The notes under the pieces: generated by a model
The model's input: the letters and a program-made list of their open reading frames with translations, nothing else
Database searches by the model: none
Told to the model about the DNA's origin: nothing
In this document: one piece after another, positions 9,531 to 12,500 of the stretch
Numbering within the stretch: position 1 is the stretch's first letter
How the letters are laid out: the number at the start of each line of letters is the position of its first letter
Assembly: GCA_964467175.1 (NCBI GenBank)
Contig: CAYXNY010000045.1
Location: 1 to 60,047 of the forward strand
Origin: Candidatus Micrarchaeota archaeon
GTDB lineage: Archaea > Micrarchaeota > Micrarchaeia > Anstonellales > J096
Length of the DNA: 60,047 nucleotides
Direction of reading: 5' to 3'
Made by a program: the position numbers and the translations under genes

Positions 9531-12500
9531 AATTAGCCCTTTAGTAACGGCTGGCTGAGTAGCTCGGTTGCCCTTGCTACTTACACCACCGTCCTATCAA
9601 ACCCATCTGCTATGGGCGGGCTTTGCTCTCTAGTTTTGGGAGGCGCTTCGACCTTAGATGCTTTCAGGTCTTATCGCCGTGGGGCGTGGCTGCCCGGCAG
9701 TGCCTGTGACAACCGGTAAACTAGAGGCCCCGGGTCCAAGTTCCTCTCGTACTAAAAGACCCTTCCCCTCAAAGAGCGACACTTCCAGCAGATACTACCG
9801 TACTGTCTCGCGACGTACTGAACCCAGCTCATGTGGGCCTTTAATGGATGAACAACCCAACCCTTGGTGGCTCCTGCACCACCAGGATGGCCCAAGCCGA
9901 CAGCGATGTACCAAGCCGCGGGGTCGATTTGTACAAACCTTTTTGCAAAAAGTTCTTTCTTTTCCATAAACGCTTTTCTTTCTTCCAAGAAAGAAAAGGG
10001 TTTGTGTACTCTCGCCCGCGACGAGCCTGTTACCCCCAGGGTAGCTTGTTTGACAGCTGGATGCCCTACTAATAGGCAGCCCAGGTTCGCTAGGCCCGAC
10101 TTTCGTCTCTGCATCCCACGCTTTTAGGGATACAGTCAGGCCAACATATGTCCTTCACCCTCTTCCCCGGATTTCTGACCCGGGTGAGTTGACCATTGGG
10201 CGCCCATGTTTCTTTATCGTGGGCGTACCGCCCCAGCCAAACTATCCACCTGACGCTGTTCCCTTGCGGGTAATCCTCACCAACAAGAAAAGGTGGTGTT
10301 ACATCGTCGCCTCCACAACCCCCGGAGGAGTTGCTTCGAAGGCTCCCACCTACGCTCTGTAATCCCATTGATGAAAAAACATCAGGCTATAGTAAAGCTC
10401 CATGGGGTCTTCGTTTCCCACTGGAAGTCCCCGGCATCTTCACCGGGAAGTGACTTCACAGGGTCCCAAGCAGGGACAGTAGGGGAGACGTTACGCCATT
10501 CATGCAAGCCGCCAATTAAGCGGCGAGGTATTGCATCAAGGCCATACCAAAAATGGTATAGCAAGGACCTTTCCTACCGCTTAATTTTCAAATGGCGTCT
10601 GCAAGAAGGTAACTCTTACCGCGTTCTTAAGGCCGATCCTCTCCATGTCTCAACACAAAGAGGCATGGCCTTGTTTACGCTACCTGTCTCCCAAAGAGCA
10701 GTCTGCTCCTCATTAAGAGGGTCAGAGTCTAGGGTTTGTGGTCCTCTACTAAGATTCGTATTAATTCCGTGTGACCACAAATTACCCCCGCTCTTTACTG
10801 GCCCTTTTTCCCGTTGAACCGGACTTTCAGGTACCAGCAGTGAGCAGGCGTCGGCCATCGTACTAGGCATTTCTGCTTTGCGATGACCTGTGTTTTTGAT
10901 AAACAGTCGCTCCCCCTTTGTTAGTGCCACCTGCCTTCTCATCGAAAGCAGGCACTCCTTCTACCGAAGATACGGAGCTAACTTGCCGAATTCCCTCGCT
11001 TGGGTTCTCCCTACAGGGCTGAGCCTTTTCAGCTAGGGGCACCTGTACTAGTTCTAGGTACGGGCATGAAGAGTCGTTGGGCTTTGCCTTTTCATGGGCC
11101 CCAGGAATCAGTCCAGTTCCCCCATAAGAGTTTGAACTGCTTCTCCTCACAACGAGACTCCGCAGTTCTATCCTCTTTAGACGGAATCTCTTCCGCTGAA
11201 CCTATCCCAAAGCGTCAGCAAAACCCCTTGCGTTGCCGCGCCTATCTTCATGGGGCGGGAATATTAACCCGCTTCCCTTTCGCGCGCTTCCGATTAGGGG
11301 CGCGCTTAGGACCGCCTAACCCTTGGCTGACGAACATTGCCAAGGAAACCGTGCCCTATCAGCCCTCCAGGATTCTCACCTGGATATGCTGCTACTAGCG
11401 CCAGGATATTCATTCCAGACCGCTCCATAAGAGCTCACGCCCTTACTTCTCCGCAGTCCGGACGCCTTCCTACTCCTCTCCTTTCGGAGGGGCGGGGAAT
11501 TGGAGGCTGGCTTAGCCCCGTAAATTTTTAGAGACCGCTCCCTCGGCTGGTCCGCTATTACGCGTTGTTTGGAGGGTGGCTGCTTCTAAGCCTACCTCCC
11601 AGCTGTTTTGGGGAGGGGCCTCCTTGTAGATTCACACTTAGCCAGCACTTAGGGTCCTTAGCCCCGCGTACGGTCGTTCCCGAAATGGCCCTCAAGCTTA
11701 CCCCGAGGAACCCCACTGCCGCCATCTACGCCGAAGGCAGATTCGGAGTTTGATAGAGGAGGGAGGGATTTCTCCCCCTTGCTCCCCAATCGGTGCTCTA
11801 CCCCGCCTTCAAGCTCCGGCGACGCTGAGCTGAGACTCATCTCGGAAGGAACCCGCTATCACCCGGCTCGATTGGACTTTCACCCCTACACCCAAGTCAC
11901 CTAAGGGGAATATACCACCACTAGTTGCGGGCCTCGACCAACCTGACGGCTGGCTTCACCCTGCTCGGGCGTAGTTCGCAACGGGCTTCGGGTCTGCATG
12001 CGGTGACTGGTCCCCGGTTAAGAGGACGCCCCTTGTTGCCTGCGGGCTTTTGCTTTCGCTTCGCCTTTCAGCTCGCCACCGCAAATAACTCCCTGGCTCT
12101 TGCTTCGAGAAGAATGCCAGAACTCTGGAACACCTGCCTCCCGCCTGCCCTTTCGAACAGGAAGTTCGGCAGGCCAACCTTTTGAGCCCTGGCTGCCTGT
12201 CCCCGCATAGTTTCAGGCTCTTTTAACCCCCCTTCCGGGGTGCTTTTCAGCTTTCGCTCGCGCTACTAATTCGCTATCGGTCTGAGGCACATATTTAGAC
12301 TTGGAGGTTAGTACCCCCATATTCCCGAGCTCAGCCAGAGCACGGTACTCTTCTGGATCGCTCCTTTTTCCTTCCTCTACGGGGCTGTCGCCCTCTTTGG
12401 CGTCCCGTTCCAGGGAACTTTGAGTCGGAGAAAGGGTGCTCCCCCACACATCTGCGTCCGCATTACTGCGGGGCATTCGTGACGGTCTCTCCGGGGTTCA

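Follow-up and report, generated by a model that had tools for sequence, protein, structure and literature searches.

The question raised by this locus is how a short, A/T-rich stretch came to interrupt the 23S rRNA gene of a Micrarchaeota archaeon at a highly conserved hairpin, and what becomes of it once the gene is transcribed. The DNA analyzed, referred to here as the window, is the 60,047-nucleotide (nt) contig CAYXNY010000045.1 of assembly GCA_964467175.1, from a host belonging to the Anstonellales (Micrarchaeota, DPANN). Its large subunit (LSU; 23S) rRNA gene occupies window positions 9521-12707 on the minus strand (3187 nt; RF02540 match, 2398 bits), and is composed of 2886 nt of exon sequence and four small inserts. 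An earlier note on this DNA had drawn attention to one of these, at the tip of helix 89 (H89), and had offered two explanations: an expansion segment retained in the ribosome, or a mini-intron removed after transcription. We favor the mini-intron and disfavor the retained segment, because the junctions of the insert are of the bulge-helix-bulge (BHB) type, three more mini-introns lie in the same gene, the distribution of such inserts is patchy while their junctions are fixed, the genome encodes a splicing endonuclease and the ligase RtcB, and the insert is homologous over its whole length to tRNA introns. In more explicit terms, the H89 insert is very probably a mini-intron whose BHB motif is relaxed, a member of a tRNA-intron family that would be cut by an epsilon2-type splicing endonuclease and whose exons would be joined by RtcB.

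Alignment to the LSU covariance model placed the insert in the terminal loop of a hairpin of domain V (model positions ~2571-2574), which is H89, with 77 nt at a point where the archaeal consensus has 2 nt. Relatives without the insert read GAGAGUACAC^AUCGAC in RNA, or GAGAGTACAC^ATCGAC in DNA (here and below, ^ marks an insertion or cut site). Since these insert-free relatives fix the boundaries, the insert can be defined as 75 nt at window positions 9929-10003, with an ambiguity of 1 nt, in the arrangement GUACAC-(AAACCC...GGUUUGUACAA)-AUCGAC, its 3' end reading GUACAA. By our own alignment we take the insertion point to lie between E. coli positions 2477 and 2478; all E. coli positions given in this text rest on that alignment to E. 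coli 23S rRNA and are approximate. The earlier observation thus holds in its essentials: the sequence it quoted is present inside an archaeal LSU rRNA gene, its placement at the tip of H89 (about E. coli 2470-2480) agrees with ours, and the insert is indeed far richer in A/T than the surrounding rRNA (G+C 30.7%, compared with 55.9% in the exons). Its length of ~73 nt needs revision to 75 nt, and the ends bracketed at this site have to be moved downstream, by 1 nt (5') to 2 nt (3'). The features recognized in and around the insert are these:

9929-10003, minus strand: intron D (the H89 insert), 75 nt, delimited by the covariance model and insert-free relatives.

10006-10009, minus strand: exon strand GUAC of the 4-base-pair (bp) central helix H, followed by AC; predicted 5' cut after 10004.

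9931-9934, minus strand: intron strand GUAC of helix H, followed by AA; predicted 3' cut after 9929, the exon resuming at 9928 (AUCGAC).

9973-9998, minus strand: hairpin 1, CUUUUCUUUCUU-GGAA-GAAAGAAAAG, 11 bp in the minimum free energy (MFE) fold; conserved core of the intron family described below.

9952-9963, minus strand: purine box AAAAGAAAGAAC, which mirrors hairpin 1's purine arm; invariant in the alignment of the intron family.

9939-9952, minus strand: hairpin 2, CUUUUUGCAAAAAG; the MFE fold extends it to GGUUU, where it adjoins helix H.

The same insert occurs in an independent metagenome-assembled genome (MAG) of the same genus (G001, 'Candidatus Anstonellales archaeon', JAWAFD01), where it measures 73 nt and is ~89% identical to the copy in the genome of the window (G000). 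The flanks of the two congeners are 97.5% identical, the insert therefore diverging faster than its surroundings, and hairpin 2 is variable between them. The presence of the same insert in an independent congener means that it is no assembly artefact. While the fragmented state of the MAG (50 contigs, 0.94 Mb, 88.8% completeness) might suggest such an artefact or a decaying rRNA pseudogene, the gene in question is the sole LSU gene of the assembly, has the high model score given above, and retains all conserved exon sequence intact once the four inserts are removed; we attach a negligible probability to either explanation.

To assess the junctions, a BHB rule (a 4-bp helix with a bulge to either side, one per strand, and a cut in each strand 2 nt beyond the helix) was applied to boundaries that had been set independently, by comparison with relatives. 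At H89, all four bases of exon GUAC (-6 to -3 from the 5' cut) find a partner in intron GUAC (located -6 to -3 from the 3' cut), each cut lying 2 nt beyond the central helix; of the two registers that preserve the spliced product, the alternative pairs at only two of four positions. Shuffled introns reached the observed combination of helix H and inner helix with P = 0.0006. The unconstrained MFE fold of the local pre-rRNA already forms helix H, with both cut sites unpaired, so that enforcing the BHB fold costs 0 kcal/mol. The 11-bp hairpin noticed earlier (CUUUUCUUUCUU/AAGAAAGAAAAG) forms in the MFE fold as well, while the closing helix proposed with it, ACAAACC/GGUUUGU, is a possible pairing that overlaps exon bases and competes with GUAC/GUAC, the pairing favored by the MFE fold and by comparative data. 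The insert conforms to a relaxed BHB-like motif, with variable bulge length and partial forms (hBH or HBh'), as accepted by (alpha-beta)2 and epsilon2 endonucleases (criteria from PMC3239211). Self-splicing group I or group II identity was considered and rejected, 75 nt being too short for a catalytic core of at least ~200 nt; the window contains no match to a group I or group II intron family at the Rfam gathering threshold. Inspection of the intron by eye revealed no RUGAUGA or CUGA boxes of a C/D-box sRNA.

Three further inserts in the same gene have junctions of the same kind. The 23S genes of compact relatives are 2856-2915 nt long, and alignment to them first showed, beside the H89 insert, a single additional insert of 245 nt; reading of this region showed that the conserved sequence of helices 69 to 71 (H69-H71) is complete, and that it is split, in the layout GGGGGUA-(54 nt)-ACUCUGACCCUCUUA-(28 nt)-AGGUAGCGUAA-(144 nt)-UACCUCGCC. 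The resulting features, in transcript order, are:

10729-10782, minus strand: intron A, 54 nt, in the H69 loop; helix H GGGG/CCCU, bulges UA^A and AG^A, inner helix 9 bp.

10714-10728, minus strand: micro-exon 1, ACUCUGACCCUCUUA, 15 nt.

10686-10713, minus strand: intron B, 28 nt; helix H CUCU/GGAG, bulges UA^A and AC^A, inner helix 10 bp, outer helix 3 bp.

10675-10685, minus strand: micro-exon 2, AGGUAGCGUAA, 11 nt.

10531-10674, minus strand: intron C, 144 nt; helix H GCGU/AUGC, bulges AA^A and AA^U, inner helix 12 bp.

Introns A, B and C lie, we presume, at E. coli positions 1912/1913, 1927/1928 and 1938/1939. Each has a central helix paired at all four positions in exactly one product-preserving register, directly followed by an inner helix of 9-12 bp, and intron B shows the canonical hBHBh' motif. 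Relative to the local MFE, adopting the BHB fold costs A, B and C 2.0, 4.2 and 7.7 kcal/mol, respectively. In-silico removal of all four inserts yields 2886 nt, collinear with the genes of compact relatives. Neither retention of the inserts nor fragments left unligated would fit easily with micro-exons as short as 15 and 11 nt in the H69-H71 core, and we infer that the organism splices its 23S rRNA. The stem from which 23S rRNA is processed (window 12708-12760 with 9480-9520, minus strand) combines an 11-bp outer helix, a 3-bp helix, a lone CAG bulge of 3 nt and an inner helix of 6 bp. Lacking the classic two-bulge motif, it is a half or relaxed BHB, and as such another relaxed substrate.

A pattern search over all 176 genomes of the order, representing 48 genera, retrieved an insert at the exact H89 site in 13 genomes from nine genera. 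These inserts range from 49 to 253 nt, with interiors that for the most part cannot be aligned; every one of the 13 ends in GUA(C/U)NN^AUCGAC and keeps helix H, with exon bases unchanged. The 23S genes of the 13 carriers are overall only 70-79% identical, yet their GUACAC and AUCGAC flanks match those of insert-free relatives. Within the family to which the window belongs, the H89 insert is confined to its genus, and the pattern, which requires the exon sequence of this order, was found in none of ~265 genomes from other orders of the class. Two other genomes, G029 (L003) and G028 (L030), use a second H89 site, 5 nt upstream (GAGAG^...CUCAAA^UACCC; presumably near E. coli 2472/2473), where their inserts measure 43 and 178 nt; these inserts share a GAG/CUC helix and a 3-nt 5' bulge and differ in their inner helices. 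An expansion segment would be expected to be lineage-stable and peripheral, with a conserved base and a variable tip; what we find is a patchy occurrence, a second site 5 nt away, and unrelated interiors.

The most informative result came from searches with the A/T-rich core of the H89 insert, which disclosed relatives outside rRNA genes. The core matches scattered loci in other genomes of the order, and is multi-copy in G035 (at least 12 places) and G027 (at least eight), with E-values down to 1e-14; in G000 and G001 its sole match is the H89 insert itself. At three of the matching loci a tRNA body adjoins the hairpin. Segments around the hairpin having a central helix paired at four of four positions were deleted and the remainder run through ARAGORN, and this deletion restored complete genes for tRNA-Lys(UUU), tRNA-Lys(CUU), tRNA-Gly(UCC) and tRNA-Ser. 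The introns so delimited lie in the T-loop of the two tRNA-Lys genes (63-77 nt) and in the D-loop of tRNA-Gly(UCC) (~69 nt), these being non-canonical introns of another family; that of tRNA-Ser is 122 nt long. The H89 insert aligns with the tRNA introns from its first to its last base, the global score against the tRNA-Gly intron being 39, compared with -9.7 +/- 4.3 (maximum 7) for shuffled sequences. Common to the 23S and tRNA introns are a 5' (A/U)AACC, hairpin 1 (kept by the tRNA-Lys and tRNA-Gly introns that G035 and G027 carry), the AAAAGAAAGAAC purine box and a 3' N4-AA^; the 23S and tRNA-Gly copies further share a 3' GUUUG-H3-AA. The central helix varies in a compensatory manner within this homologous family, as read from ungapped junctions (MAFFT shifted the 5' flank of tRNA-Gly by one column):

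23S H89 loop: exon strand GUAC; intron positions -6 to -3 GUAC.

tRNA-Gly D-loop: exon strand GUCU; intron positions -6 to -3 GGAC.

tRNA-Lys T-loop: exon strand GUUC; intron positions -6 to -3 GAAU.

Without removal of the tRNA members of the family, their tRNAs could not work. The relationship recurs in a second lineage of H89 inserts, unrelated to the first and present in G114 and G170: these inserts are 66-67% identical, end to end, to the intron at position 37/38 of the tRNA-Glu(CUC) of G170, with the central helix GUAC/GUAC in 23S rRNA and CUCU/AGAG in tRNA-Glu, and G167 has a further copy of this lineage inside its own 23S gene.

The tRNA-Glu(CUC) gene of G170 (L095, G170:C1) carries two introns, of 70 nt at 37/38 and of 41 nt in the T-loop. 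A tRNA-Gly on G170:C4 (L092) also seems to have two introns, one of them with tandem copies of the hairpin of the G170 H89 intron; ARAGORN calls obtained for this gene after single deletions were spurious, the test being invalid for tRNA genes with two introns, and are not relied on. Two tRNA genes of the window itself, at 20807-20949 (plus strand) and 42961-43063 (minus strand), are 143 and 103 nt long according to Rfam and are both missed by ARAGORN. These lengths imply introns of about 70 and 30 nt, which bear no resemblance to the 23S introns.

These relationships bear on the origin of the insert as well as on its fate. The sequence evidence suggests that the intron came to the 23S gene from tRNA genes by transposition, or was exchanged with them, and the likeness of the two targets, GUUCAA^AUC in the T-loop and GUACAC^AUC in H89, may have helped it to establish there. 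A T-loop-type intron ending in GAAU would pair at three of four positions with GUAC, and the two forms found at H89, GUAU and GUAC, are one and two substitutions removed from GAAU. From this we lean, by a small measure, toward a broader proposal: that the H89 insert represents a family of mobile, protein-spliced mini-introns moving between tRNA loops and 23S rRNA, in which the tetranucleotide at -6 to -3 is re-tuned to each new exon, and that at least two unrelated tRNA-intron families have settled in H89. Under this proposal the H89 loop would have been hit repeatedly because its GUACAC^AUC mimics the GUUCAA^AUC of the T-loop. A different origin, which would leave the function of the insert untouched, is that an A/T-rich palindromic element resembling a miniature inverted-repeat transposable element landed separately in an existing H89 intron and in tRNA introns, without transfer of any whole intron. 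The best-conserved part is indeed a palindromic hairpin with its purine box, the H89 site also hosts unrelated interiors and so predates this one, and some copies in G035 gave no tRNA after a single deletion. We nevertheless consider separate landings unlikely, and whole-intron transfer the likelier of the two, since the introns resemble one another right up to both ends (5' (A/U)AACC, and 3' GUUUG-H3-AA in 23S and tRNA-Gly); moreover, the elements are exactly coextensive with BHB-delimited introns in five tRNA genes, and in the second, unrelated family, too, the similarity between 23S rRNA and tRNA-Glu covers the whole intron.

The machinery required to process such introns is encoded in the genome. 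A 375-residue EndA aligns end to end with PDB 4FZ2 (E = 8e-86), the three-unit epsilon2 splicing endonuclease of ARMAN-2 (PMC3488258), and conserves its catalytic Tyr, His and Lys together with the specificity-loop Lys (GMYKISHL here versus GTYKVSEH in ARMAN-2). In vitro, the ARMAN-2 enzyme cuts strict BHB introns as well as a relaxed hBH intron at T-loop position 59/60 (PMC3239211). The genome also encodes RtcB, a ligase described as joining both tRNA and rRNA exons after BHB cleavage (PMC4496867). The host thus has a suitable endonuclease as well as the ligase, and cleavage and ligation in vivo can be predicted as follows. In the pre-rRNA, exon GUAC (10006-10009) would pair with intron GUAC (9931-9934) in the 4-bp central helix, placing the 5' cut inside the bulge AC^A and the 3' cut inside AA^A, opposite two unpaired exon bases. 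Both cuts would be made by the epsilon2-type endonuclease, ARMAN-2-like and of broad specificity; RtcB would then ligate the exons, re-forming the universal loop GAGAGUACAC-AUCGAC, and the intron would probably leave as a circle.

Two observations on these proteins may be added. The RtcB reading frame spans 936 residues (G000 contig C38:26765-29437), with model positions 1-50 and 41-426 parted by ~1.3 kb in frame, a stretch that may be an intein. A second protein, of 147 residues, has N- and C-terminal domains of splicing endonucleases (G000 contig C38:40800-41045), and could be a structural subunit or a relic.

The presence of RtcB also bears on whether the exons are joined. The endonuclease could excise the insert and leave the 23S rRNA fragmented at H89, in the manner of bacterial intervening sequences; the geometry of the cut sites would be identical to that of an intron, and a nick at the tip of a hairpin could be structurally tolerated. 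Four inserts treated in this way, however, imply five fragments, two of them the implausible pieces of 11 and 15 nt in the H69-H71 core, the homologous tRNA introns need ligation to give working tRNAs, and the encoded RtcB belongs to a type that ligates rRNA as well as tRNA exons after BHB cleavage (PMC4496867). Fragmentation at H89 is accordingly, in our estimate, very improbable.

Several features of the locus weigh against the interpretation of the H89 insert as a spliced, mobile tRNA-type intron. The strict hBHBh' motif, with two 3-nt bulges, a 4-bp helix and flanking helices, is absent: with A10003 paired, the 5' bulge amounts to 2 nt (AC), and it reaches 3 nt (ACA) only if that A-U pair opens; across from the 3' bulge AAA lie two unpaired exon bases; and the outer helix has no more than 2-3 bp. 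An alignment-blind BHB scan of the 23S gene gave 76 matches, compared with ~58 in shuffled sequences; helices being abundant throughout rRNA, it fails to pick out the four inserts. The BHB folds of introns B and C are disfavored relative to the local MFE by the amounts given above. No further copy of the H89 intron family is present in this genome, the homologous tRNA introns all residing in other genera, and a fuzzy pattern search combined with blastn-short revealed no paralogs of introns A to D elsewhere in the genome. Finally, the H89 stem, GUAC/GUAC and the two hairpins would also fit a coaxial extension of the helix, and for this reason structure alone cannot separate an intron from an expansion segment.

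This last point leads to the other explanation offered at the outset, namely that the insert is kept in mature 23S rRNA as a branched extension of H89, next to the peptidyl-transferase centre and factor-binding region. A relaxed rather than strict motif, an MFE fold that continues the H89 stem through GUAC/GUAC into two hairpins, and conservation of the insert in two congeneric species would all be compatible with retention. The distribution and the homologies point the other way: loop bases flanking the insert are unchanged in all 13 carriers, as expected if the native loop has to be re-formed; inserts of 49-253 nt with unrelated interiors, scattered over 13 of 176 genomes, do not behave as a stable rRNA element; the homologous tRNA introns have to be removed; and the three sister inserts would cut the H69-H71 core into pieces of 15 and 11 nt, which is implausible for RNA that is retained. 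We know of no expansion segment at the tip of H89 in any domain of life. Retention is consequently given very little credence here, and a spliced mini-intron remains the interpretation that we carry forward.

Other 23S genes of the order display additional inserts. Genomes G021 (L027) and G034 (L023) both have one located ~20-25 nt downstream of the H89 loop, at what we take to be E. coli 2495-2500; that of G021 is ~950 nt long with a LAGLIDADG-like open reading frame (ORF), and that of G034 ~63 nt. The 23S gene of the congener G001 (L062) extends to 5113 nt and contains six inserts, of which only that at H89 is common with the window. Two of these, of 48 and 45 nt (L062 832-879 and 1441-1485), occupy separate sites in domains II/III and possess a common loop, CAGGTTTTTAGGAAGGGA, which suggests another mini-intron family represented by two copies in one gene. 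Three larger inserts of ~640-710 nt (L062 2030-2735, 2776-3487 and 3961-4603) presumably correspond to E. coli positions 1923-1931, 1949-1951 and 2450; when read by eye, the second and third, at the least, seem to code for LAGLIDADG-type proteins. The first, of 706 nt, has a weak group I match (24 bits, E = 0.002) and is probably a group I intron. The third, a LAGLIDADG insert of 643 nt at ~2450, has a near-canonical BHB (GGGG UA^A ... CCCU UA^A) and no group I signal at E <= 1; it served as the positive control for the BHB rule, a use subject to the caveat of the weak group I match in the 706-nt insert.

If the literature is as we perceive it, and if our interpretation is true, the H89 insert would provide the first sequence-level link between the BHB introns of tRNA and rRNA, and the proposed mobile family would supply a concrete target rule by which the spread of such introns could be tested. 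The gene itself is an extreme case: four mini-introns, three of them chopping the functional core of H69-H71 into micro-exons, would make ribosome production in an archaeon with a reduced genome heavily dependent on tRNA splicing enzymes. Inserts of this kind also lengthen rRNA genes, and can cause annotation, primers and phylogenies based on rRNA to fail for DPANN archaea. In a limited literature search, which is no proof of novelty, we found no published intron at the H89 terminal loop (~2477/2478), nor any published sequence homology between tRNA and rRNA BHB introns. We therefore describe the insert as an element of a known kind, at a site and in a host lineage that both appear to be unreported.

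The closest known elements are of three types. Archaeal BHB introns in rRNA are exemplified by the small, non-coding 16S introns of Thermoproteales (PMC4496867), and BHB introns have been noted beside group I introns in DPANN LSU genes (Nawrocki, Jones & Eddy 2018, PMC6125680). Like these, the H89 insert interrupts universally conserved rRNA with a BHB-like junction core, is patchy among close relatives and variable in its interior, and is predicted to use the tRNA splicing endonuclease and RtcB; unlike them, it has a relaxed motif, no homing-endonuclease ORF or remnant, and an interior homologous to tRNA introns and not to other rRNA introns. A second precedent is found in the non-canonical tRNA introns of ARMAN-2 cut by the epsilon2 enzyme, such as that at T-loop position 59/60 of pre-tRNA-Cys, with its relaxed hBH motif (Fujishima et al. 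2011, PMC3239211; Hirata et al. 2012, PMC3488258). Here the parallels include a host from the Micrarchaeota, the same type of endonuclease, a relaxed motif, and an insertion context at H89 (GUACAC^AUC) that resembles the T-loop (GUUCAA^AUC), to which may be added the direct homology of the H89 insert to the T-loop and D-loop tRNA introns of G035 and G027. The differences are that the host gene encodes 23S rRNA, that the intron is 75 nt long where those tested in vitro were 13-25 nt, and that cleavage is here predicted. Lastly, transposition of introns from tRNA to tRNA has been described in Thermoproteales, by a mechanism given as unknown (2010, Mol Biol Evol 27:2233, as summarized in PMC4090602). 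The two systems are alike in having near-identical introns at different positions of unrelated genes, with junction bases fitted to the host, a combination that implies intron mobility. They differ in their endonucleases, of epsilon2 type here and (alpha-beta)2 in Thermoproteales, and in range, the present family spanning tRNA and rRNA genes as well as genera and families of a DPANN order, which suggests that such introns can move between tRNA and rRNA genes.

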